A DNA stretch of 64,000 bases from Myxococcota bacterium. Lineage in GTDB: Bacteria; Myxococcota_A; SURF-8. A program made the position numbers and the translations under genes. The stretch lies in contig OZ223209.1 in assembly GCA_965140415.1 (NCBI GenBank), positions 5,472,001 to 5,536,000 on the forward strand. The letters are read 5' to 3'. This document shows positions 736-63,840 of this stretch, in pieces (positions within the stretch are counted from its first letter, which is position 1; each line of letters starts with the position of its first letter). Under the pieces are notes generated by a model that made no database searches, was not told the DNA's origin, and saw nothing but the letters and a program-made list of their open reading frames with translations.

Positions 736-963
736 TTAAGCCTGAGCGCGCTTTACACTGCGACGCGACGGCGTAAGTTCCTCTGTGGTTTCTTCCATCG
801 TGACCAGGTGCTTGACCTTGAACACCATGCCGCGGATGGCAGGCGTATCTTCGCGAATCACCGTGTGGCGGATTTTACGTAAACCCAAACCTTTGATGAT
901 TTTCCGTTGATTTTCAGGTCGCCCTACCAGGCTGCGTGTCATCGTGATTTTCAAGTTCGCCAT
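736..963 (-). CDS. rpmD: 50S ribosomal protein uL30 with short C-terminal extension
   Basis: [29 protein letters not shown]; lies between rpsE and rplO. Confidence 0.96.
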
Positions 964-978
964 GCCGCTTCTCCTTAC

Positions 979-1488
979 CTAACCCAACTGCTCGGGCGTT
1001 TTACCCAAACGCTTGGCGAAGGCTTCCATCGTCGTGAGGTTGTTCAACCCGTCCATCGTCGCACGTACCACATTATGCGGATTACGCGAGCCGATGATCT
1101 TGGACAGGATATTCGGAATACCTGCCGACTCGATGATGGCACGAACCGTACCGCCGGCGATGATTCCCGTACCTGGGGAGGCCGGTTTCAACACGACCCG
1201 GCTCGCTCCATAGCGACCGATGATCTCGTGCGGAATCGACTCTTTCACGATCGGAATCTTCACCATGTCGCGCTTGGCCCGCTCACCCGCTTTACGGATG
1301 GCTTCCGGAACTTCGTTAGCCTTACCTTTGCCAACGCCGACCGAACCGTTACCATCGCCGACCACTACGATCGCGCTAAAGGAAAAACGACGACCACCTT
1401 TGACAACTTTGGCAACTCGGTTGATATGGACGATGCGATCCTGAAATTCATCGTCTGTCGCATTTTGATTTTGTACCATGTTCGCCAC
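979..1488 (-). CDS. rpsE: 30S ribosomal protein uS5
   Basis: [16 protein letters not shown] motif; GTG start with AGGAGG RBS. Confidence 0.98.
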
Positions 1489-1506
1489 GGAATCCTCCTT
1501 CGGCGC

Positions 1507-1959
1507 CTAGAAGTTAAGACCCGCTTTGCGAGCGGCCTCGGCCAGGTTACGCACCCGCCCGTGATACTTGTATCCACTGCGGTCGAACACGACCTTTTCG
1601 ATCTGCTTCGCCTTGCAGCGCTCCGCCAGTACTTCACCCACTTTGCGGGCGATCAGCACGTTGCGGCTGGGAGGCGGCTCGACCTTCTTTTGTTTCTTAC
1701 CCTTGCCTTTGCCTTCGGCCTCTTCTGCCGGAGGTTCGGGAGCCGGAGCACTTTCCAAAGCTTGGATCTGCTCGCGCATCTCACCATCCAGTGATGAAGC
1801 CTGGGCCAGGGTAGCGCCCGTTTCATCATCGATGACCTGGGCGTAAATGTGCTTCAGGCTGCGAAAGACTGTCAAACGCGGACGCTCGACGGTGCCGACA
1901 ACCTTCTTGCGAATTCTACTCTTGCGGTTCAGCCGTTGGGCCGTTTTCTTCGTTGGCAT
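1507..1959 (-). CDS. rplR: 50S ribosomal protein uL18 with internal insertion
   Basis: [20 protein letters not shown] and [14 protein letters not shown] motifs. Confidence 0.97.
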
Positions 1960-53425: not shown

Positions 53426-56191
53426 TTACGCTCTTCTTCGCCAGAAGATGATTCCCGCCAGCAGGCTCAGCAACAACAAACCACCGGTCGCCATGTTGCC
53501 CGCAGCGCTGTGACAACCACCGCCGTCTTCCTCCGGCTCATCACCGTCGACCACCGGGAAATCGCCGTCGATAGGTGTGAAGCCATCGCCATCGGTGGGA
53601 TTGACGGTATCGCCATCCGTGCTGCTGCCGGAGTCGATGCAGATCTTCTCGAAATCATCGCAGATGAAGTTCTGACCCATGCTGGCCCAGCAATCTTCAT
53701 CCGTTTCGCAACCGACCACTTCGTCCACGAAGGTAAACAGGCTGCCGGTGATCGGAGCGCCGAAAACCGTGGCCCCACCCGCATCGACATTGGCATTGTC
53801 CATGACATTGATGCGGAATTTCTTCTCTACCGCGACATTATCGAAGGCCGCCACCGCCAGCAGGTTGACTTCTTCGTTCGCCGCCAGCGCAATGTTCAAG
53901 TTGCTGAATGTCACATTGCCGTTGTCCTCGCTGAAGGACTTGGACTCGCCCAGTTGCGACTCGCCGTTATCCAGCGCGCCGTTGCCGTTGGCATCGCGAT
54001 ACAGGCTGATCTGATCGACTTCACTGGGATCGTACAAGGTGCCTTCCGCCACGAAGGTAATGCCATTGATGGAAACGGCTTCATCGTAGGCGCGCAGCAA
54101 CAACTGCATGACGGGCGCATTGATCGTTTTCGGCAAAAACGCCGCTGCCGGATTGTGATAACCCATTTCAATGCTCACATCGGTATCGGCGCTGGGCAGG
54201 TACAGCAGGGAGCAATCGAAGGGCAGACCGTACTTGAAGCCGCGAATGCTCACACCCTCTTCGGTCAACTCCAATTGTCCGATCATCCCCGGAGTCGCAT
54301 CTTCATCCACGTCGACGGTCAGAATCAGGCTGTGCTTTTCGTCCTTGGCAACAGTCGGTAACGCGCTGAAATCATCGAACGCCAAACCGCCGCCAACCCA
54401 GGAGGTCTTCTGCCCGATCTGGGTGTCGCCGCTGTCGACCACGCCATCGTTGTTGTTATCCAGATACAAGGCCGCCATCGAGACGACCCCGGCATCCGCC
54501 GTTTCCTTGGGCGTGAATTTCAACGAGCTGATCTGCACCGGGCCTTCCAGGGCTTGCAGGCTTACATGCGCGGCAACGACATCGGTTTGACCCGCCGTTA
54601 CAAAGCGGCTTTCCGGATGGTTGCCGCCCTTGTTGAAATAGAGCTTGCCTTCGTAGGATTCCAGCCGAACGGTATGCTGGATCGGAACACCGCCGTTGGT
54701 GAAATAGATATCGCCATTGCCGCTGATGATCTGCGCGGTGTTTTCGACGATGGTTTCCTTGGAAACACCTTGCTCCAGCGAATTCAACCGAACGCCGATT
54801 TCCACGGTGCGTCGATACGGCTCGCCAGGCGGGATGTTGTCGGCAACGGCGATGCCGGTCAGGCTGGGCGGCTGGTTTTCAACCGGGTCGGGAACGTGGC
54901 GGCGCTCGCCGCTGGGCTCGACGACATAGGTGCTATTGGCAATATACGTCACGACCGAAGGCAGCGGATCTTTAACGATAACGTTGGTGGCGACATCTTC
55001 GCCGTTATTCTGAACGTAGATGTAATACGTGAAATCCTGTCCCGGATACAAGGCCTGGCCACTCGCCACCGAAGCGCCTTTTTCCGGCTCGTCGGGAATG
55101 TCGAAGTCGGGCAGGCGCGTATCGATCGAAAGGATGATGTAGTTACTGAATGCCTGATCCTGCCCCAGGGAAAAGAGAATGGTAGCGTCCGTGTCGCCCG
55201 GACTGAGCAGATCGGAAACATAGAAAGTATCCAGATCGATGGAGTACTGATTGGTGCGGCAGGCTTCGCCGTCGGCCAGGTTGGTGTTGACCGTGCCGTT
55301 ATAGGCGTTGTCCAGCGGATTGCAGGAATCGGTAAGCTGCACGCCGTTGAACTTGATTTCTTCGTTGTAGGTGCCGGTGACACCGGTGCCGGAGATGCTG
55401 TCGTCGCCTTCACCCAAAAAGAAGGTGACTTTGGCTTCCGGGTTGAAGGGCACATCGAAACCGGAGGGCGTCAGCGTGACGACTTCGTCGTGGATGGCAC
55501 GGAAATCGGTGTAATAGTAAATACGCTTGGCCTGTCCACCCGGATTGGAGTAGATGATCACCAAACTCCAGCCACCCAGCGCCACCGTGCGGCCTTTGTA
55601 AGGCTCATCCGCCCAGCCGGAGAAATCCGAAATCGTGTAATCGCCATTCAGGCTCTTGTCTTCCGTCACGTAATGGGTACGCAGAATATTGGTCACATCC
55701 GCCCGGATCGTATAGTAATGGAAGGTCTGATCCTGCCCCGCAAGGTCGGTACCTTCGTAGATCTCTTCGTAAATCGGATCTTCATCAGGAACGGTTACCG
55801 GGTATTTGTCGCCTTGGGGTGGCTGCAAATGCACTTCGCGGTCGGCGGCCTGTAGACCGTGCTGCAAGGAACCCATCCAGACCAGCATGGCTTTCAGAAT
55901 ATGAACGCCTTCCGGAATTCCCGCTAGCACAGCAGTTGATGTGCCGTTGACGATATCTCCCTGGCCGTCTCCCGGAGGGAAACAACCGAATGCGGACACC
56001 GTGCAGGTATCGTCTAAAAAGGAGCCGCCGGTCGCGGCGTAATCGATGGTACCTTCCCACTTATCCGTCGGTTCCAGCGCCAGTGCGCTGTTGATTCCGA
56101 CAAGTAGGAAAACGATCAGAAAACTCAAGGCCCCGCCTGTTACGCGAATGCTGCGATACTTCGAATACATGCTCTTCCTCCGGGTTCTCAT
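53426..56191 (-). CDS. Large surface protein with DUF11-type repeat and MYXO-CTERM-like sorting signal
   Basis: Signal peptide; PGQDFTYYIYVQNNG..ATNVIVKDPLP..YIANST; C-terminal GGGC + TM + RRR. Confidence 0.8.
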   Translation of the reverse strand: MRTRRKSMYSKYRSIRVTGGALSFLIVFLLVGINSALALEPTDKWEGTIDYAATGGSFLDDTCTVSAFGCFPPGDGQGDIVNGTSTAVLAGIPEGVHILKAMLVWMGSLQHGLQAADREVHLQPPQGDKYPVTVPDEDPIYEEIYEGTDLAGQDQTFHYYTIRADVTNILRTHYVTEDKSLNGDYTISDFSGWADEPYKGRTVALGGWSLVIIYSNPGGQAKRIYYYTDFRAIHDEVVTLTPSGFDVPFNPEAKVTFFLGEGDDSISGTGVTGTYNEEIKFNGVQLTDSCNPLDNAYNGTVNTNLADGEACRTNQYSIDLDTFYVSDLLSPGDTDATILFSLGQDQAFSNYIILSIDTRLPDFDIPDEPEKGASVASGQALYPGQDFTYYIYVQNNGEDVATNVIVKDPLPSVVTYIANSTYVVEPSGERRHVPDPVENQPPSLTGIAVADNIPPGEPYRRTVEIGVRLNSLEQGVSKETIVENTAQIISGNGDIYFTNGGVPIQHTVRLESYEGKLYFNKGGNHPESRFVTAGQTDVVAAHVSLQALEGPVQISSLKFTPKETADAGVVSMAALYLDNNNDGVVDSGDTQIGQKTSWVGGGLAFDDFSALPTVAKDEKHSLILTVDVDEDATPGMIGQLELTEEGVSIRGFKYGLPFDCSLLYLPSADTDVSIEMGYHNPAAAFLPKTINAPVMQLLLRAYDEAVSINGITFVAEGTLYDPSEVDQISLYRDANGNGALDNGESQLGESKSFSEDNGNVTFSNLNIALAANEEVNLLAVAAFDNVAVEKKFRINVMDNANVDAGGATVFGAPITGSLFTFVDEVVGCETDEDCWASMGQNFICDDFEKICIDSGSSTDGDTVNPTDGDGFTPIDGDFPVVDGDEPEEDGGGCHSAAGNMATGGLLLLSLLAGIIFWRRRA

Positions 56192-56344
56192 TACGCCTGA
56201 CGGCAGTAGGACGCCCTATTATTAAGGATAGGGACAAACAAAGTCAAGCCTTTATCCGGCAATGAAAAGCCAAGCAAACGGTTGACATCGTAACCGATTT
56301 CGTCTACATCTATTCAATATAGATGGTGACGGGGAGAGACCGGA

Positions 56345-57115
56345 ATGGCGGAACGAAATCAATTGAAAACCAAGGTGGAATTGACCTTGAACAGCCAGCA
56401 TGTCTGGCTGGCGTTTATCGGTGCGCTCATCGCAATGGCGCTGGTGTTTTCCTTGGGTGTGATGGTCGGAAAACGACTTAACGGCGTAGCGGGAGTGACT
56501 CCTGCCGACGACGCGCTGGCGGCAGTGCAGCAGCAGGAAGATCAATACCAGAAACTGGCAGAGGTAATCCAGGTCCAGCAACCGGAAAAAGCGGACGCAA
56601 AGGCCAAGGAAGACACTGCCGAACAGGATAAAAAGGCGCAGGAAGAAGCCGCAAAACTGGCAAAACTGCAACAGGAAAAAGAGGCCGCCAAGAAAGCAGA
56701 GCAGCAACGTCGGGAAAAAGAAGAAGCTCGCTTGAAAGAGCTAAAGAAAAAAGAACGGGAAAAACAGGCCGCAGAGGAACGCAAAGCCAAACAGCTTGCC
56801 CAGCAGGCCGCGAAAGAAAAGGAAAAGACAGAAGATAATTCAGCGGCATCAGCCACACAGACCCCGGCTCCGCAGGGAAAATACTACACCTTGCAGATTG
56901 CATCCTTCCCAAGTCGCGACAAAGCGGATTCCTATGTCTCGCGTTTCAAAGCCGTCGGCAATCGCAAGCCATTCATTACCCCGGCGGAAGTTCCCGGCAA
57001 AGGCACCTGGTATCGGGTGAAAATCGGGAAATTCGAAACGAAGGAACAGGCACTGGCCTTCCAATCCATCTTTGAAGCCCGCACCAAGACGCAATCCATC
57101 CTGGCACTTGAGTAG
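56345..57115 (+). CDS. SPOR-domain cell division protein (FtsN/DedD-like)
   Basis: N-terminal TM, charged coiled linker, YTLQIASF...WYRVKIGKF. Confidence 0.88.
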   Translation: MAERNQLKTKVELTLNSQHVWLAFIGALIAMALVFSLGVMVGKRLNGVAGVTPADDALAAVQQQEDQYQKLAEVIQVQQPEKADAKAKEDTAEQDKKAQEEAAKLAKLQQEKEAAKKAEQQRREKEEARLKELKKKEREKQAAEERKAKQLAQQAAKEKEKTEDNSAASATQTPAPQGKYYTLQIASFPSRDKADSYVSRFKAVGNRKPFITPAEVPGKGTWYRVKIGKFETKEQALAFQSIFEARTKTQSILALE

Positions 57116-57135
57116 AACCGATATCATTCATTTCC

Positions 57136-57216
57136 GTTCATCTAGCAATCGAGATGTGCCATGGTCTCACGGAATGGAAATTCCGGGAGGCCGTGCGTAA
57201 CCTATTGAATACACAC
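57136..57216 (+). repeat. Second copy of the 81-bp hairpin element
   Basis: 76/81 identical to 37430-37510 (by-eye alignment). Confidence 0.9.
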
Positions 57217-57328
57217 CGCCTTCCACGATCTTTGATCGCGTAAGACTATGGCGCAACGTCTTCGAATCAGTTGCTAAAAATAAATAACAACTCTTCTAGT
57301 CTCTTAAATCACACAAGAATTCGCATAG

Positions 57329-57367
57329 AGAAAAGGTGGGGAATGACCGCTCCGAAGAGCGGTCATT
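57329..57367 (-). terminator. Hairpin/terminator downstream of the 57385-57900 gene
   Basis: AATGACCGCT-C(TTCG)G-AGCGGTCATT, UUCG tetraloop on the minus strand, T run shortly after. Confidence 0.65.
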
Positions 57368-57384
57368 GGGTAAAGAGTGTCAGT

Positions 57385-57900
57385 TTAGTGCTGGAAGGAA
57401 AGATAGAAACTGCGAAACCAGGGCAGTAGCTGTTCTCGGTCAAAGTAGGCGATGCCTTCGCTGACCTTCTTACCGCTACGCTTCTGGTATATGTTTCCAT
57501 AGAGGGTGGTGAGAGACTTCCAGGGAGCGCGTAGGGAGAGTGTCTTGTGGCCGTCGTACTGATACGTCAGCCGGTCGCCGCCCCGGAAGGTAAATGTATA
57601 GCGTACGCCGCGCTCGCCGCGTAAATTCAATGTCAATTCGCCGCTCAATTTGGCTTGCTTGCTTAGCCCATCGGCCTGAACCGTTCCACTTAGACCCAGC
57701 ACGATCCGCCCCTGACGCAGATCGATCCACTGCCGACCCGGCAGCGCCTCTGCGCGCAAGTGACAGGAAAAAGCTTGTTCCTGCGATGTTTTCTTTCCCT
57801 TGATCAGGCGGTGCGACCCGCTAAGCGTTTCGGTAAACCCATACCCGAACAGCGGGGTTGCCAGTCGTTCTCTGATAGGCTGCAAGGATAGTGCAGACAT
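57385..57900 (-). CDS. Hypothetical protein (beta-rich; FTETLSG...Y.G.K...TTLYG pattern recalls domains associated with cholesterol-oxidase-like GMC proteins)
   Basis: GGGAG RBS, own promoter and terminator; family resemblance from memory only. Confidence 0.65.
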   Translation of the reverse strand: MSALSLQPIRERLATPLFGYGFTETLSGSHRLIKGKKTSQEQAFSCHLRAEALPGRQWIDLRQGRIVLGLSGTVQADGLSKQAKLSGELTLNLRGERGVRYTFTFRGGDRLTYQYDGHKTLSLRAPWKSLTTLYGNIYQKRSGKKVSEGIAYFDREQLLPWFRSFYLSFQH

Positions 57901-57934
57901 AATCGACTCCCGTTTCGTTCGTCATATGCAGCGC

Positions 57935-57963
57935 ATCATAATCCTTTTAACGCGACGTGTCAA
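57935..57963 (-). promoter_or_regulatory. Sigma70 promoter of the 57385-57900 gene
   Basis: TTGACA-N17-TATGAT. Confidence 0.75.
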
Positions 57964-58081
57964 GTCAAAGTCAACTTTTTCTGGAACTATTTATCGGAAA
58001 CGGACTTAGGTTTGGACTCCAGACAATTCGAGGCTATGCAAAAGATGATGAAAACTGGAAAGGGCGTTGATCCGCCACGCT

Positions 58082-58204
58082 GTTGCCCGCGTGAGAGGGA
58101 ATGGGGAAAGGTACATAAGCAAGGCCTATTTTCCGATGGAATGGCCAGAAACCATCGAAATTCCAAACGATCCCTTGGAAAGGAGCCGCTCCCACGCGGG
58201 CAAC
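58082..58204 (-). ncRNA. Putative structured non-coding RNA, family unknown
   Basis: 16-bp closing stem plus internal hairpins; three G-U pairs on the minus strand would be A-C mismatches on the plus strand. Confidence 0.5.
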
Positions 58205-58550
58205 CAAGGCGCGGGAATCTACTAACTACCGCAAAGGTCGCGCCAATTTCCGAACATGCGACACCTGCCTCTTAACAGCCTGATAACAATATGGAAACAT
58301 GTATTCTGGCAGTTGCCTGCGCAAAGCGTCACTATATGGTTTGCTTTCCAACAGGACAATATTGTCATACTTTTAGCGCTTTTTACCAGGGTCTCATGCT
58401 GCACCATGTTGTGACACGCTACAAAATGCCACCTGATGAGCTTCCATGGATCGACAGGTTACGATACGTTGCTTTGAGTATGGGGAAGATTGTGCTTGAA
58501 TTCAAGACAGGCCGAGTTGCGCCCGGAGCCAAGACAGCAGGTTCGTGATT

Positions 58551-58577
58551 GTCGGTCAGAAAATCTGACCGACCTAC
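58551..58577 (-). repeat. GTAG-footed REP hairpin downstream of the ImmA/IrrE gene
   Basis: GTAG-GTCGGTCAGA-TTT-TCTGACCGAC; variant of 37518-37542. Confidence 0.8.
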
Positions 58578-58605
58578 ATCTTACTCCAAATCGAAAAACT
58601 CACTT

Positions 58606-59163
58606 TCAACCATAGGCCTTGCGCATATGGTGAAGCTGCAACATGGCCCGGCTCATACAAGGGCGGCTGACGTTAAAGGCACTGGCCAGTTTCAGCGTCA
58701 GCTTCTCCAGACTTTCCCGGTCCTGATCGCGATAGGAAATCGTGGGTGCATGGCCATCCAATAGCCAGATGGGCACCAGCAGTGAAGATGCGAAGATGTC
58801 GGCCTCCCGTTCCAATAGCACCTGATCGAGGGGGCGTGGCGTCTCCGAAGAATCGCACATTCCAAGATGATGCAGCAGGTAATGACCGTATTCATGACAG
58901 ATCGAGAAGCGTTGGCGCGGAATCGACTCGTGATCGTTGAAGTAGATGATTGCCGTAGCTTCCGATTCCTTCTCGGAAACGGGATCGCTGATCTTCAACG
59001 CACTGGACACACGTCCCAACGCTGCCGAACGAATCTGCAATTCCGGGTGATTTGCTTTCAGAATATCCGTCGATATGGGTGGCTTTGCGATTTCAACCTT
59101 TCGAAGCAAGCGATTGGCCAACTGGGTAATGGCCATTACGCGCTTAAGATTTGCCTGCACCAT
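58606..59163 (-). CDS. ImmA/IrrE family metallo-endopeptidase
   Basis: RQRFSICHEYGH (HExxH), EREADIFASSLLVP, LASAFNVS; ATG 59163 after GGAGAGGAG. Confidence 0.9.
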   Translation of the reverse strand: MVQANLKRVMAITQLANRLLRKVEIAKPPISTDILKANHPELQIRSAALGRVSSALKISDPVSEKESEATAIIYFNDHESIPRQRFSICHEYGHYLLHHLGMCDSSETPRPLDQVLLEREADIFASSLLVPIWLLDGHAPTISYRDQDRESLEKLTLKLASAFNVSRPCMSRAMLQLHHMRKAYG

Positions 59164-59545
59164 GGTACTCCTCTCCAATAATAAGATCGATTGCGGCGCG
59201 TACTTTTTCATCCCGCTCGATGGCTTGAATGACTTTCATTGCGTACTGCATCTGCTCGGAAGTCAGGGAGTGACCTTCCCTGAAATACACCGCAGCTTGC
59301 GGTGGATCGTCGTAAAAAGGACGTGCTTCGCCGGTTGCTTTTTCTTTCTGCCGCTGCCTGATCATCTCGCGCTTGTCCATACGCAGCACATCGCAGATGC
59401 GTAGCAGCTTGTTCTCCGACGGCAGGGAACGCCCTCGTTCCAAATGGGCCACATATCCTTCTGTGCAGTTGATACGCGCAGCCAGTTGCGCCTGGGTGAT
59501 GTTGGCACGCTTGCGCGCCTTACGGATGGCCTGTCCGGTCGTCAT
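59144..59545 (-). CDS. XRE/Cro-C1 family HTH repressor
   Basis: IRKARKRANITQAQLAARINCTEGYVAHLERGRSLPS; overlaps the peptidase start by 20 nt. Confidence 0.92.
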   Translation of the reverse strand: MTTGQAIRKARKRANITQAQLAARINCTEGYVAHLERGRSLPSENKLLRICDVLRMDKREMIRQRQKEKATGEARPFYDDPPQAAVYFREGHSLTSEQMQYAMKVIQAIERDEKVRAAIDLIIGEEYHGAGKS

Positions 59546-59584
59546 GTTTGTTTGTCCCTCCCGTCTACAACTATACTAAATATT

Positions 59585-59613
59585 ATAGTAGCTCACACCG
59601 TAGCCTGCTGCAA
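59585..59613 (-). promoter_or_regulatory. Putative promoter of xre-immA
   Basis: TTGCAG-N17-TACTAT, overlapped by the ACTATA-N8-TATAGT palindrome at 59570-59589. Confidence 0.55.
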
Positions 59614-59893
59614 GGGGATTCCGAATTCTCAACCCATTAATCAAGTAGTTCCAGTATGTTAATCAATTCTTCCACGAAACGAATAGTTTTTTAAGCCACT
59701 AAGACATACTCTGTCTCATACTATACATAATAATAAGTATATGTCAAGCGGGACATGACAAGCACGAAGAGGAAAATTCCATATGATTATCAATGAGTTC
59801 AATTGCAGTAACAAACATGAATCAGGACAAGAACTGTACAAAGATGTCAAGTTTCCAAGGGACAAACCAAACCAAGGCCAACAGGAGGAAAAA

Positions 59894-60373
59894 ATGATGT
59901 GTCTGCAAGAAGAACACAGAACAAGCACACAATCGACTTCATTTGAGGAGGCACAGCAACAGGCAAGCAACGACTTCGACGCCTTCGTCATTGAAATGGA
60001 TGAGCGATTGCAACAAGACCGCACGGTGACACTCGATGCCATCGAATACCTCGGGTGTGGTTCGACACCGATTCCCGAATGGGACTCCTTCGATTGCAGC
60101 GACCGCAAATCCTGCCTGCAAACGCCGCAAGGAATCTGCATCGCCTGCGGCGAGGAGACATGCCTTCCACTACTGTGCCGAACCTGCCTGGAGCACATCG
60201 AGGAAATGACCGAACAGTTGGAGTGCCCCTGGTTCATCTCTCCCGATCTCTGTGCCGCACGGGTAGAAGCACAGCAGGGAGAGATGACGCACACCGGCTG
60301 CGGGGGAGATTTGGCGGTCTGCGAAGCACGCAACTGGTTGTACGTCCGGAATGATCAAGAGGAGCAAAACTGA
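59894..60373 (+). CDS. Cys-rich, acidic hypothetical protein (putative Zn finger)
   Basis: AGGAGG RBS before ATG 59894; CIAC..CRTC plus further Cys; TGATG coupling to the next gene. Confidence 0.7.
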   Translation: MMCLQEEHRTSTQSTSFEEAQQQASNDFDAFVIEMDERLQQDRTVTLDAIEYLGCGSTPIPEWDSFDCSDRKSCLQTPQGICIACGEETCLPLLCRTCLEHIEEMTEQLECPWFISPDLCAARVEAQQGEMTHTGCGGDLAVCEARNWLYVRNDQEEQN

Positions 60374-60723
60374 TGCCGCCGTTTGACTCCGTATTGCAGG
60401 CGGTGAAATGGTATCGCCTGGTAAAGCAACAAGGGCTGCCGTCGCAGCAGCGTGGGTATCGAGTAAGACCGCGCGTATCGGCAACGTTGAAACTAAATCT
60501 GGATGTGCTTTGGGGAGAACCGGCTGCGATCTGGAATCGCCTGGATCACGTCATCCAATCGTTACGGGAAGAGGAGAGAATCCTTTTATTGACGAACCGT
60601 CCCGAGGCAGTGGGGTTGAAAACTCCCAATCAGATGTACAAGCGGCAGCACGCCTTGCGGGCACAATTACAACCGGTTTTCGAACACGCAGGACTGATCG
60701 AGTTGGAAGGACTGGACCGTTAA
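60373..60723 (+). CDS. Hypothetical protein, possibly a sigma-region-4/phage late-activator-like regulator
   Basis: GAGGAG RBS, translational coupling; LDHVIQSLREEERILLL...ALRAQLQPVFEHAGLI pattern. Confidence 0.65.
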   Translation: MPPFDSVLQAVKWYRLVKQQGLPSQQRGYRVRPRVSATLKLNLDVLWGEPAAIWNRLDHVIQSLREEERILLLTNRPEAVGLKTPNQMYKRQHALRAQLQPVFEHAGLIELEGLDR

Positions 60724-60739
60724 CACAGGAGATCGACAC

Positions 60740-61015
60740 ATGAACGCAACTGAACGCGAAAAAATCTGGGGCTGGTACAATATCGCCATGTATTTCGAAG
60801 TGCATGAAAACACGGCAAAACGCTGGGGTCGCGAAGAAGAAGCCTTTCGGCGTTTGATCCGGCGCTGGCGCAGACGGGTTTTCGCCTACGAAGACGAATT
60901 GAAACGCTGGCAGCGCCAAATGGAAAGCGGTTTTGAAGAAAACGCCATGGCAAGCGGAGAATACGCTTCCATTGCTCATCAAAGGCAATACCCGCAACAG
61001 GGAGCGCAGCTGTAA
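60740..61015 (+). CDS. Small excisionase/MerR-like HTH protein
   Basis: AGGAG RBS; IWGWYNIAMYFEVHENTAKRW...VFAYEDELKRW pattern typical of Xis-like winged HTH. Confidence 0.7.
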   Translation: MNATEREKIWGWYNIAMYFEVHENTAKRWGREEEAFRRLIRRWRRRVFAYEDELKRWQRQMESGFEENAMASGEYASIAHQRQYPQQGAQL

Positions 61016-61150
61016 GGCGCCCCGGGAAGTTGGAAACGAAAGCGGCTGGATGCCCTAAGATGTATCGGGATTGTGTCCTGATACAAAATGTTACGAGCGG
61101 GATACAATCCCGCTCGATCTTAGGCAGGGAGCGCAACTGTAAAACGCCCC
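60998..61150. repeat. Composite repeat: 26-bp direct repeats flanking a 64-bp double hairpin
   Basis: CAGGGAGCGCARCTGTAARRCGCCCC at 60998 and 61125; 61059-61122 homologous to 37631-37694. Confidence 0.8.
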
Positions 61151-61161
61151 TGAATTCGTGA

Positions 61162-63840
61162 TTACTGCTTGGGGTCGTCGTTGTAGAAACGATAGCTCAC
61201 CACCACGTCGTCCCCTTCCTCGGGTCGCGCGGTGCCGTAGAACACGATGGTTTCCTGTATGGCGTCGTACATGAAGCCATTGGTCTGGCTGCGACTGATG
61301 ATCTGGCCTTCGACCATAACCTGAATCGTGGAACTGATCGGGTGATGGTTCAATTCGTAGAACGAAGCCGTACCCGCCGCCGCATACAGAATTTCTTCCA
61401 TCGTGGCGGTCAGATCCGGCGCACAGATCGAACCGAAAGAACCGCCGGTGTGATAGGCGATCTCGATGTAGGCCGAGCCCGGCTCACCCGCTCCGGGACC
61501 GCTATCCGCCGTACCGCCGCCGCAACCGTCGGGAGTATCTCCCACGATGGCAAAGCAGGTGGTGCCTTCATCGCCGTAATACGCCTTGTAGTTGGTCAGC
61601 GTATCGGCTTCGCAGGTCGCGTTGGCGCAGTCTTCATATTGCTGGTCTTCTTCATCGGAGAGGAACAGCACGATCACCGAGGCATCCTCGCGCCAGCGCT
61701 CGTTTTCCGGCAGGGTCGGATCTTTGGCGCGTTCGATGGCTTTCATTCCTGCACCCAATCCGTATTCGGTGCTGCCGCAGGGCGGGTCTTGTACGTCGCT
61801 CTGGAAATCGGTCATGTTCCGCGTGAATTTGTGATCGCCCAACAAACCGGAATTGGTTGCCGGATACAGCACGGAACACAACCATGGGGTTATTAGCTGG
61901 ATCTCAGGCGGACAGAAGTCCACACAATCGGTGGAGGTCACCGCCACGCGGAAATCGATGCCTGCCGATCCCATGATCGTCCCAAACAGTTCCGCCGCAT
62001 TGGCAACGGCCTGCTGGTCTTCGCTCATCGAACCAGAATCATCGACCACCCACAAAAAGTCCACCAGTCCCACTTCCGCGCCCTGATGCGGATCGCAGCC
62101 ATTGAAGGTGTCTCGTTGCGACTTCGCCAGCGCACTGCCGTCGGTCAGATCGAGCGCGCGATAGCGGGCCTCTGTATTGTTGCTGTTGTCATAACGATCT
62201 TTGGCGACCACAGTGGCGATTACAATCGTCACCGCCGAGCCGGTTCCGGTGCGGATCAGGGTTTCGCTGACCAACTCGAAGGTTTCCGACGCTTCGGAAG
62301 GTCCAGGCGGCAGGTTGCCGATAGCGGAGGTAGCACGACCGGAGAGCGCCGCCAGCCAGTCGTTGCGCAAAGCCCCGACGGTCTGACTGGTTGTCGTAAT
62401 CGAGTAATGGCTGGTCATGGCCGGAAACTCGTCGTAGCTCGTAAAGGTACGCCCGCGATGGTTCAGGTTGCCATCGGAAGGCAGGTTCGCCATCAGTTGG
62501 TTGTCCGCCGCAACCTGGTTGGTAACATCAGTGGTGCTGCGGTCACGCGCCAGGATGAATCCGGCGATATTGTTACTGGCATCGGAAAAAGCCGCCGCAT
62601 ACAGAATCGTTCCCCCTGCCGGGTTCAGTTCCAAATCGGTATAGGTGAAGGCGGGCAACAGTGCCAGAGTATAGTCGGCGGCTGCATGATCCCACAGGCT
62701 GACGCTGGTCAGCTGTTCTTCCTGACAAATCAAGTTGACGCTTTCCTGATCGTCGGGGATACCATCGCCGTCGGTATCCGGATTGGTCGGGTCGGTTTCG
62801 CCGCGATCCGGTTCGAAAATACCGTTGTGATTGGAATCTTCGACGCCGTCGGGCAGGTTGTCATTGTCGGTATCTTCCAGCAATGGGTCACTGGGACTGT
62901 TGAAGTACTGGCCATACTGGCCATACACTTCATCGCCATCACCCACCTGATCGTTGTCTGTGTCGCGGTTTAGCGGATCGGTCTCGCCGGGATCGCGTTG
63001 GCCGTTGTGGTTGGCGTCTTCCACGCCGTCGCTCAACTTGTCGAAATCGCTGTCCAGGTTCAACGGATCGGTTTCGCCCGGATCCCACTGGCCATTGTGA
63101 TTGGCGTCTTCGGTGCCGTCTTTCAAGCCATCGTTATCGGTGTCTTCGTTGAACAGATCGGTTTCACCCATATCGTGCTGGCCGTTGTGATTGGAATCCT
63201 CGATGTAATCGGGCAGGCCGTCGTTGTCGCTATCCAGCGCCGGTCCCGTATCCTCATCGGCCTGTTCGGCATCACCGTCCGGGACATCGCCATCGATGGG
63301 CTGATCGCCATCAACAGATTGATCGTCGTCCGCCGGTGGCCAATCGTCGCCATCGGGATATTCATTGCCGAAATCGATATCCGCTTCGTTGCGCGAATGA
63401 CAACGACTGTCGCCACCGCAATATTGCCCCGTTCCACAATCCGAATTGGAGGTGCAGAAGTTCTCGATTTCCTGACAGTATCCACCTTCAACGATGCATT
63501 CCGATCCCAAGGGGCAGTCATCGTCGTTCTGACAGAAGTCGTCGACCGGGTTATCGCCATCGACAACAGGTGTTTTCTGCTCGCAGGTGTGATTGGTGAG
63601 GTTGCACTGCTGGTCGATCTGGCAATCGGTATCGACTTTACACTGCACCGTGATGCACTGCCCCAAACTGTTGCAGATCATTTTGTCGCCGCAATCGGTG
63701 TCATTGCTACAGGAATCACCGACCTGCCCGGAATCGCCATCGCCACCGGAACAGGCAAATAGCAACAGAACCGCCATCAGACAAGCGACAAAGTGAAAAT
63801 TCGTATGGAATGAAAATCGACGTTGCGTAGTATGCATCAC
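61162..63840 (-). CDS. CglD-like lipoprotein (Cys-rich repeats, Ca-binding TSP3-like repeats, vWA domain)
   Basis: Lipobox LFAC; 30-aa DTDNDGLxDGxEDANHNG..DPGETDP repeats; MIDAS DFLWVVDDSGSM; architecture of myxobacterial gliding lipoprotein CglD. Confidence 0.75.
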   Translation of the reverse strand: MMHTTQRRFSFHTNFHFVACLMAVLLLFACSGGDGDSGQVGDSCSNDTDCGDKMICNSLGQCITVQCKVDTDCQIDQQCNLTNHTCEQKTPVVDGDNPVDDFCQNDDDCPLGSECIVEGGYCQEIENFCTSNSDCGTGQYCGGDSRCHSRNEADIDFGNEYPDGDDWPPADDDQSVDGDQPIDGDVPDGDAEQADEDTGPALDSDNDGLPDYIEDSNHNGQHDMGETDLFNEDTDNDGLKDGTEDANHNGQWDPGETDPLNLDSDFDKLSDGVEDANHNGQRDPGETDPLNRDTDNDQVGDGDEVYGQYGQYFNSPSDPLLEDTDNDNLPDGVEDSNHNGIFEPDRGETDPTNPDTDGDGIPDDQESVNLICQEEQLTSVSLWDHAAADYTLALLPAFTYTDLELNPAGGTILYAAAFSDASNNIAGFILARDRSTTDVTNQVAADNQLMANLPSDGNLNHRGRTFTSYDEFPAMTSHYSITTTSQTVGALRNDWLAALSGRATSAIGNLPPGPSEASETFELVSETLIRTGTGSAVTIVIATVVAKDRYDNSNNTEARYRALDLTDGSALAKSQRDTFNGCDPHQGAEVGLVDFLWVVDDSGSMSEDQQAVANAAELFGTIMGSAGIDFRVAVTSTDCVDFCPPEIQLITPWLCSVLYPATNSGLLGDHKFTRNMTDFQSDVQDPPCGSTEYGLGAGMKAIERAKDPTLPENERWREDASVIVLFLSDEEDQQYEDCANATCEADTLTNYKAYYGDEGTTCFAIVGDTPDGCGGGTADSGPGAGEPGSAYIEIAYHTGGSFGSICAPDLTATMEEILYAAAGTASFYELNHHPISSTIQVMVEGQIISRSQTNGFMYDAIQETIVFYGTARPEEGDDVVVSYRFYNDDPKQ

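Follow-up and report, generated by a model that had tools for sequence, protein, structure and literature searches.

Gene transfer agents (GTAs) and the dedicated regulators that control them are established mainly in Alphaproteobacteria and in a few other lineages. Several small repressor-gated switches from other settings have been described. In CapP and IrrE the C-terminal domain is a GAF domain, and single-stranded DNA (ssDNA) switches CapP on (bioRxiv 10.1101/2022.04.27.489752). The small helix-turn-helix protein AlpA of Pseudomonas aeruginosa (PMC7969949; PMC9371919) is derepressed by cleavage of AlpR. It binds at a site between −35 and −10, loads on RNA polymerase and then passes intrinsic terminators that stand just upstream of two operons, of which one is unlinked (PMC7969949). 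In Caulobacter RogA gates GafYZ, a two-protein activator and antiterminator of the GTA cluster that also activates its own operon; GafZ works like AlpA, under RogA, a single protein, GafA, combines the two in Rhodobacter, and the GTA cluster is unlinked and has no regulators of its own (PMC11150451). Here a locus is described from a 64,000-nucleotide stretch of a Myxococcota chromosome, called the window throughout (G000:C1:5472001-5536000 of the source genome G000, a 5.98-Mb single contig). It seems to be a free-standing switch gated by an ImmR/ImmA-type repressor and protease pair, with a payload drawn from new protein families, and possibly it controls a GTA-like element of Myxococcota.

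The switch comprises five intact genes in the list of open reading frames (ORFs), a minus-strand pair encoding an XRE-family repressor and an M78/ImmA-type protease and, divergent from it, orfA, orfB and orfC on the plus strand. Positions in the window are as follows.

58606-59163, minus strand: M78/ImmA-type Zn metalloprotease, 185 aa (longest ORF to 59211; PF06114)
59144-59545, minus strand: XRE-family repressor, 133 aa (HTH_31, HTH_3)
59546-59782, no strand: divergent control region, AT-rich, with two operator-like sites
59570-59589, no strand: operator-like site 1, an ACTATAC..TATAGT palindrome adjoining the xre start
59720-59738, no strand: operator-like site 2, a 19-mer kept in all three genera that carry the cassette
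59783-60373, plus strand: orfA, 196 aa, with a variable N-terminus and a C-terminal domain with eight invariant Cys
60373-60723, plus strand: orfB, 116 aa, orphan family
60740-61015, plus strand: orfC, 91 aa, a predicted small excisionase/MerR-like (HTH_17-like) DNA-binding protein
58468-58522, plus strand: copy of a block from the leader of an unlinked head-tail gene cluster (nhmmer profile, E=1.2e-4, 24.6 bits)
58547-58578, no strand: REP-like (repetitive extragenic palindromic) hairpin repeat, between the block copy and the M78 stop codon

To judge from ORFs, Pfam matches and gene order the five genes are real and form a conserved free-standing unit, and the cassette is very probably a genuine switch of repressor and protease that is under selection and has B and C as its payload. 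A minus-strand xre-immA pair divergent from three intact plus-strand genes is what a sequence-only reading of the window had proposed, and this arrangement is confirmed, all five genes being syntenic in G004 and G001, two genomes of the same family as G000 and of different genera. Among 41 related genomes A and B are present in these three only. Identities to the G004 and G001 proteins are 60-62% for the XRE protein, 51-53% for the protease, 30-37% for A, 36-41% for B and 64-69% for C; in the comparison of G000 with G001 the XRE protein, the protease and C stand at 62%, 53% and 69%, a divergence similar to that of the housekeeping protein proC and its neighbour, at 66% and 56%. The plus-strand genes are tightly packed, the orfB ATG overlapping the orfA stop by 1 nt and orfC beginning 16 nt past orfB, preceded by AGGAG. 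The flanks of the cassette differ in all three genomes, those in G004 holding IS630-type and IS4/5-type transposases on both sides and those in G001 a class II ribonucleotide reductase, an Exo_endo_phos protein and a T2SSE ATPase, and no integrase or virion genes lie within about 8-10 kb on either side at any of the three loci. Sister genomes do carry the cassette, and not inside full prophages; its absence or such an embedding would have spoken for a simple remnant.

Beyond these genomes it is B and C that persist, and on their distribution they are the conserved core of the switch. A profile built from 14 B proteins and searched against 401 Myxococcota genomes finds the family in six of them, all of one order and spread over three families, and in each of the six B adjoins a C-like gene. 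In G006 and G009, of a sister family, B and C are divergent from a CI-like repressor of 290 aa that has a helix-turn-helix (HTH) and a Peptidase_S24 domain, and neither A nor an M78 gene is there; A is absent from the B-C locus of G008 as well, where B and C are fused in frame as a single 186-aa ORF whose C-terminal part matches HTH_17 at E=7e-4. The G008 fusion (L021:9458-13793) is preceded on the same strand by an unrelated 216-aa ORF and by a 1017-aa Eco57I/MmeI-like restriction-modification enzyme. Since one B-C module is met with two repressor types and also as a fusion, B and C would seem to work together and to be what the switch delivers.

The gate itself is relatively easy to place. 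The protease matches Pfam Peptidase_M78 (PF06114) at 2.1e-16 and is the sole M78 match in G000; its HEYGH motif and a downstream Glu are invariant (H90, E91, H94 and E120 in all three orthologues). Alignment with the orthologues makes ATG 59163 its most likely start, which gives an overlap of 20 nt with the xre 3' end, and at the two orthologous loci the protease ATG directly follows the xre stop, the frames overlapping or abutting in all three genomes. The XRE protein matches HTH_31 (1.3e-13) and HTH_3 (1.2e-12), both above the Pfam cut-off, and the three orthologues, 60-62% identical, share an N-terminal HTH and a conserved C-terminal domain with an invariant Phe88-Arg89 at its start. The best PADLOC models of the pair are capP for the protease (2.7e-22) and capH for the XRE protein (2e-9, over residues 1-113). 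The capP profile is matched at positions 3-157 of 242 only, and because the match ends there and the orthologous M78 proteases are 181-195 aa long the GAF/ssDNA-sensing domain must be missing; by sequence the protease is ImmA-like and not CapP-like. A Cys suited to a cysteine switch occurs in one of the three orthologues.

The divergent control region, put at about 350 nt in the sequence-only reading, measures 237 nt, with a GC fraction of 0.40-0.46. A direct repeat and a palindrome in the region mark the operator-like sites. The second of these sites, the 19-mer ACTATACWTAATAATAAGT, is found again between the divergent genes of both G004 and G001 (loci L007 and L008), in the opposite orientation there, and is conserved in the three intergenic regions despite the divergence of the proteins. 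The minus strand has a TTGACA-16-TATAGT match at 59747-59720. Neither operator-like motif has a second site anywhere in G000 in a genome-wide motif search, so the repressor appears to act locally only.

In contrast to the gate, the output proteins A, B and C belong to no Pfam, PHROG, PADLOC or NCBIfam family, and searches of Protein Data Bank (PDB) sequences with their profiles return weak and unrelated matches only. Nothing above threshold relates them to GafY/GafZ, Q, ArpU/RinA or Xis, the case of GafY/GafZ being judged through family libraries only. No match to A, B or C is found by tblastn in 50,697 phage records, nor are there relatives in viral-contig scans made with B (as a four-row alignment) and with C. 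OrfA, taken at first sight for a zinc-finger-like protein, does have eight Cys invariant among its three orthologues, in the pattern CxxC-x9-CxxC ... C-x8-C ... C-x6-C, and that is as far as support for the assignment goes; only three such proteins occur among 5.8 billion, and its C-terminus scored 0.77 in the ESM Atlas, which is a lead only. OrfB is helical by composition, and its proposed likeness to sigma region 4 is backed by no family library. Its family has 13 full-length representatives among 1.84 billion representative proteins, these being the single-stretch matches kept out of 43, of which 30 were dropped as spurious (long multi-stretch repeat proteins at profile positions of about 6-30). 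The N-terminal helix of orfB (..VLQALKWYR..) draws these multi-stretch matches in long repeat proteins (P0020-P0051), which is read as Sel1/TPR-like motif noise. A profile scan of genome contigs with B returns only the two known loci in metagenome-assembled genomes; in the ESM Atlas, again as a lead only, its nearest neighbours are small hypothetical proteins of phages (0.93), and the leads that have a name include Q/DUF1133. OrfC is the best conserved of the output genes, with seven proteins in the 5.8-billion set. The Xis-like character given to it finds some backing in sub-threshold HTH_17 matches of distant homologues (E 7e-4, 0.006 and 0.037, so up to 0.04) and none above threshold. A metagenome scan with C gave four loci, of which L011 is a true A-B-C fragment; L012 and L013 were rejected as chance matches within a phage terminase gene and L014 as an ordinary HTH_17-like protein.

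A target for such a payload was sought elsewhere in the genome, as the sequence-only reading had suggested, in the form of an unlinked head-tail cluster that lacks regulators, and one was found. HK97-capsid (PF05065), sheath (PF04984), portal (PF04860) and TerL (PF03354) families are absent from G000, and the cluster was located through a weak Terminase_6N match. It occupies 18.7 kb on one strand at G000:C1:535491-554249 (L024, L035), about 1 Mb from the switch, and encodes a terS-like protein, TerL (phrog_2, 1e-32), a 479-aa portal-sized ORF, a scaffold, a major head protein (phrog_212, 6e-69; Pfam GP7), major and minor tail proteins and further ORFs. An insertion sequence (IS) transposase, proC and an acylphosphatase flank it on one side, a Zn-ribbon/GYF protein and a 3742-aa protein on the other. 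By gene content it is shorter than a phage genome, holding head-tail genes only, with no integrase, replication genes or repressor; across the 36 ORFs of cluster and flanks a Pfam scan detects neither an integrase nor a recognisable regulator, many of the cluster ORFs having no family. Its genes run collinear in G001 and G004, and mostly so in G006, with an upstream plsC-like gene common to G001 and G004 and different flanks in G000 and G006. Capsid identity to G000 is 82% in G001, 79% in G004, 72% in G006 and 69% in G003, so 69-82% between genera and families, where proC of G000 and G001 has 66%; a capsid of at least 66% identity occurs in six of the 401 genomes, the next being 46% (G172) and 29% (G007), and in the nearest of 33 IMG/VR loci the capsid is 38% identical. 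In G009 (L044, G009:C73) the capsid lies in three pieces, and capsid and TerL are split into three to four in-frame pieces, from decay of this copy or from assembly errors. By its genes and its distribution the cluster is a candidate for a clade-restricted, conserved, regulator-less, GTA-like head-tail element. G000 has a second phage-related locus (L025, G000:C1:1149000-1168999), with a TerL-like protein (phrog_2, 3.7e-25), a 1116-aa primase-like protein and a large serine recombinase (phrog_95, 1.7e-124), which is possibly a small integrative element or satellite.

Two sets of observations point to a link between the switch and this cluster. The first is the leader. A conserved block of about 45 nt (..GGnGnAGnnTGTGnTTnnATTnnAnnCAAGC..) precedes the first gene of the cluster in G000, G001 and G004, and a strong GC hairpin with a U-run follows about 25-30 nt past it, ending 10-25 nt before the ribosome-binding site of terS; the sequence of the hairpin differs between the genomes and its structure is kept. 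In G000 block and terminator lie within G000:C1:554171-554290 and in G004 they are tandemly duplicated (L038:10480-10790); a terminator scan picks up the G000 hairpin and that of each G004 copy. When an nhmmer profile of the four cluster sequences (G000, G001 and the two of G004) was run on the whole 6-Mb genome it gave three matches of E<1e-3, the next standing at E=0.086. One is the training site, one lies 1.7 kb upstream of the cluster leader beyond an IS (E=4e-4), and the third is window 58468-58522, the only significant copy away from the cluster, situated 84 bp past the M78 stop codon. This copy points rightwards, antisense to the protease and xre genes and in sense with orfA-B-C 1.26 kb downstream. 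The stretch G000:C1:554221-555979 holds the two cluster-side copies with the IS (DDE_Tnp_1/DUF4372) between them. The second observation is co-occurrence, for among the 401 genomes five have both B-C and the capsid, one has B-C only (G008), one the capsid only (G003) and 394 neither. For the earlier idea that the outputs act in trans, the cluster, the co-occurrence and the shared block amount to circumstantial support, and the interpretation then offered is, taken as a whole, partly supported.

A mechanism can be proposed that accommodates these features. The XRE repressor would bind the two operator-like sites and keep orfA-B-C off, and probably its own gene as well. The co-transcribed short protease would cleave and so inactivate it, probably within the C-terminal domain, where the invariant Phe88-Arg89 is the candidate site. 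Derepression would then allow the payload to be made, with B and the HTH_17-like C as one two-part DNA-binding factor and the Cys-rich A as a possible lineage-specific accessory. Most likely B and C would act in trans on the 18.7-kb cluster, loading at the block upstream of its first gene and letting RNA polymerase pass the leader terminator, and the copy of the block in the window could give positive feedback through transcription that runs antisense to the repressor operon and continues into orfA-B-C. Gene content, conservation, synteny, the operator-like motifs, the fusion of B and C, the cluster with its leader and the shared block are observed, and cleavage, the inducing signal, the binding of B-C to the block, antitermination and the production of particles are what we infer. 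The chain as a whole, from loss of the repressor through loading at the block and readthrough into the cluster to feedback at the window copy, we place slightly short of an even chance. The more inclusive proposal, in which a domesticated GTA-like element of one uncultured Myxococcota order is gated remotely by an ImmR/ImmA-type switch (in the sister family a CI-type one) through a hitherto unknown two-part processive antiterminator B+C that loads at the block and feeds back at this locus, is put forward tentatively, its probability being clearly below even.

A number of findings weigh against this proposal. The protease is, from its sequence, without the GAF sensor domain of CapP and IrrE, so that damage, the inducer supposed in the sequence-only reading, is a conjectural one here. 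The S24 repressors of G009 (L022:10283-11164) and G006 (L023:10460-11332) read DDAM at the expected GxSM nucleophile motif, a position that we take to be the site of the catalytic Ser, with Ala in its place, and their self-cleavage is therefore doubtful. Family libraries and solved structures give A, B and C no sequence similarity to AlpA, Q or GafY/Z. The operator motifs of the XRE protein are absent from the cluster in the genome-wide motif search, and no word is common to the control regions of switch and cluster consistently across genomes. By the profile search the block is confined to the cluster in G001 and G004, with none beside their switches, and in a promoter scan the block is not scored as a sigma-70 promoter. 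As to the leader, the terminator scan misses the G001 hairpin, which is seen by RNAfold only, probably because the stem there reaches into the U-run; in G006 a leader terminator cannot be made out, and in G001 and G004 the hairpin could be the terminator or insulator of the co-directional upstream plsC-like gene. The co-occurrence, in turn, is confounded by shared ancestry, both features being confined to one order, and as the genomes are kin it is not an independent statistic; G008 keeps its fused B-C with no capsid match, and G003 has the capsid and B-C was not found there, in a genome 86% complete and in 540 contigs.

Of the other ways to account for the locus, one leaves the switch real and selected and lets its payload control something else, which might be a regulon for stress or DNA damage peculiar to the lineage, a trait of the cell surface or of development, or a locus for defence; the block would then be an unrelated promoter type or a chance resemblance. 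It would suit the fused B-C of G008, kept without the cluster and beside an Eco57I-like restriction-modification gene, the lack of a block copy at the G001 and G004 switches, and the Cys-rich surface protein that is convergent on orfC both in the window and in L011; pairs like CapH/CapP are moreover described as gating diverse immune operons (bioRxiv 10.1101/2022.04.27.489752). A block match of E=1.2e-4 genome-wide at 84 bp from the cassette is however hard to ascribe to chance, and the cluster is present in five of the six B-C genomes. Neither A nor B nor C matches a PADLOC model, and LexA is encoded in G000, so that the XRE/M78 pair is not needed as a general SOS regulator. This account seems rather unlikely to us.

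A less probable explanation, and one we regard as quite unlikely, makes the cassette the immunity and early region of the ancestral prophage that also left the cluster, split off by rearrangement and now just a relic that regulates itself, in which C was once an excisionase and nothing acts in trans any more. Its appeal is that an immA-xre pair divergent from a small Xis-like gene mirrors the immunity regions of ICEBs1 and of phages, and it would suit the transposases that box in the G004 cassette, the IS upstream of the G000 cluster and the position of proC, which lies close to the cluster in G000 and to the switch in G001; the ESM Atlas neighbours of B among small phage proteins lend it a lead. 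Unselected DNA would not be expected, though, to keep B-C in three families, where the pair is also met fused and under another type of repressor, or to hold five short ORFs intact with catalytic residues and operators conserved while the proteins fall to 30-69% identity across three genera, nor is any integrase or att-like repeat left for an excisionase. That the five genes are a self-contained defence, abortive-infection or toxin-antitoxin-like cassette, in which A, B or C is an effector freed by cleavage of the repressor, is very unlikely. None of the three has an effector-like domain (A is a small Cys-rich protein, B helical by composition and C an HTH protein) or a PADLOC match, relatives are wanting in the phage and viral collections, and the family is extremely rare, without a trace of the horizontal spread that defence islands typically show; what favours a defence role is that the regulator pair finds its best library match in capP/capH, which is associated with CBASS, that the M78 protein matches a spr1629-type repressor/antitoxin model weakly (3.5e-8, far under its cut-off) and that a restriction-modification gene adjoins B-C in G008. 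Control of the cluster by B and C remains the reading that we prefer.

The chromosomal setting of the cassette is much as had been read from the sequence alone, with cellular flanks, REP hairpins and no integrase, tRNA attachment site or virion genes at the locus. Of 14 PF00589 integrase matches in G000 the nearest is about 115 kb from the switch, no tRNA gene is closer than about 30 kb, and no att-like repeat or integrase that an excisionase might serve was found at the locus. By family searches the flanks in the window include a CglD-like lipoprotein, a MYXO-CTERM protein and a SPOR protein. Large secreted proteins stand on both sides, a DUF11 protein with a MYXO-CTERM anchor at 53426-56191 on the minus strand and a CglD-like Cys-rich lipoprotein at 61162-63840, also on the minus strand, the latter, a surface protein, being convergent on orfC. 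In the metagenome fragment L011 a Cys-rich ORF (863-1516, minus strand) is likewise convergent on orfC, its C-terminus being MYXO-CTERM-like by eye only. At 57385-57900 (minus strand) lies a 171-aa ORF with no family and no homologue beside the other cassettes, and the 700 bp or so from there to the protease gene (57900-58606) hold no convincing ORF and contain the block copy and the REP-like hairpin. The latter is a unit of a dispersed palindromic repeat of about 30 nt, with some 40 copies across the genome by blastn. A search of window 56000-62000 against Rfam gave no match.

Should the link between switch and cluster prove true, it would represent an independent domestication of a phage in Myxococcota, a control circuit built from a repressor/protease gate and a new antiterminator family, and a natural case of the same output module, B-C, wired to two types of repressor. 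Among the papers listed by a full-text literature search, none has a Myxococcota GTA as its subject to judge by title and abstract. Apart from any such link, A, B and C represent three conserved orphan families of great rarity, set on a well understood gate, which makes them easily tested.

Set beside the described systems, the gate is closest in layout to ImmR/ImmA of ICEBs1 and to the XRE and M78 pairs of phages, in which the repressor is likewise followed by a short single-domain HExxH protease in an overlapping frame and the pair is divergent from an operon with a small Xis-like HTH gene. It departs from them in that integrase, att site, conjugation and virion genes are absent within about 100 kb, in that the output genes are of new families and in that the unit is chromosomal and conserved across genera. 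With the CBASS-associated CapH/CapP and DdrO/IrrE of Deinococcus it shares the best profile matches, to capP and capH, and a repressor made of an HTH and a C-terminal domain, whose Phe88-Arg89 is reminiscent of the CapH cleavage site Phe82|Arg83 (bioRxiv 10.1101/2022.04.27.489752). The three-domain CapP described there (peptidase, HTH-like linker and C-terminal GAF) is not matched by the protease here, of about 185 aa and without GAF, and no known immune operon is attached, neither A, B and C nor the neighbouring 171-aa ORF having a PADLOC match.

As in AlpR/AlpA, a repressor (cleavable in AlpR and putatively so here) is divergent from a small HTH regulator and the candidate target is unlinked; the HTH and S24 repressors of G006 and G009 are also of the AlpR kind. 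A terminator immediately upstream of the first target gene would be a further likeness if the cluster is the target, for an intrinsic terminator is predicted before terS in G000 and G004 and, by RNAfold, in G001, with a conserved element before it. OrfC matches the AlpA family in none of the searches, there being no Pfam match at E<=0.1 and no AlpA chain among the PDB sequence matches, and in contrast to AlpA it always has B as its partner and a head-tail cluster, not lysis genes, as its candidate target. For RogA/GafYZ the parallels are the fusion of B and C in G008, the cluster without regulators and the block copy upstream of the switch. Overall, and without detected homology, switch and cluster together resemble the control exerted by AlpR/AlpA or by RogA/GafYZ.

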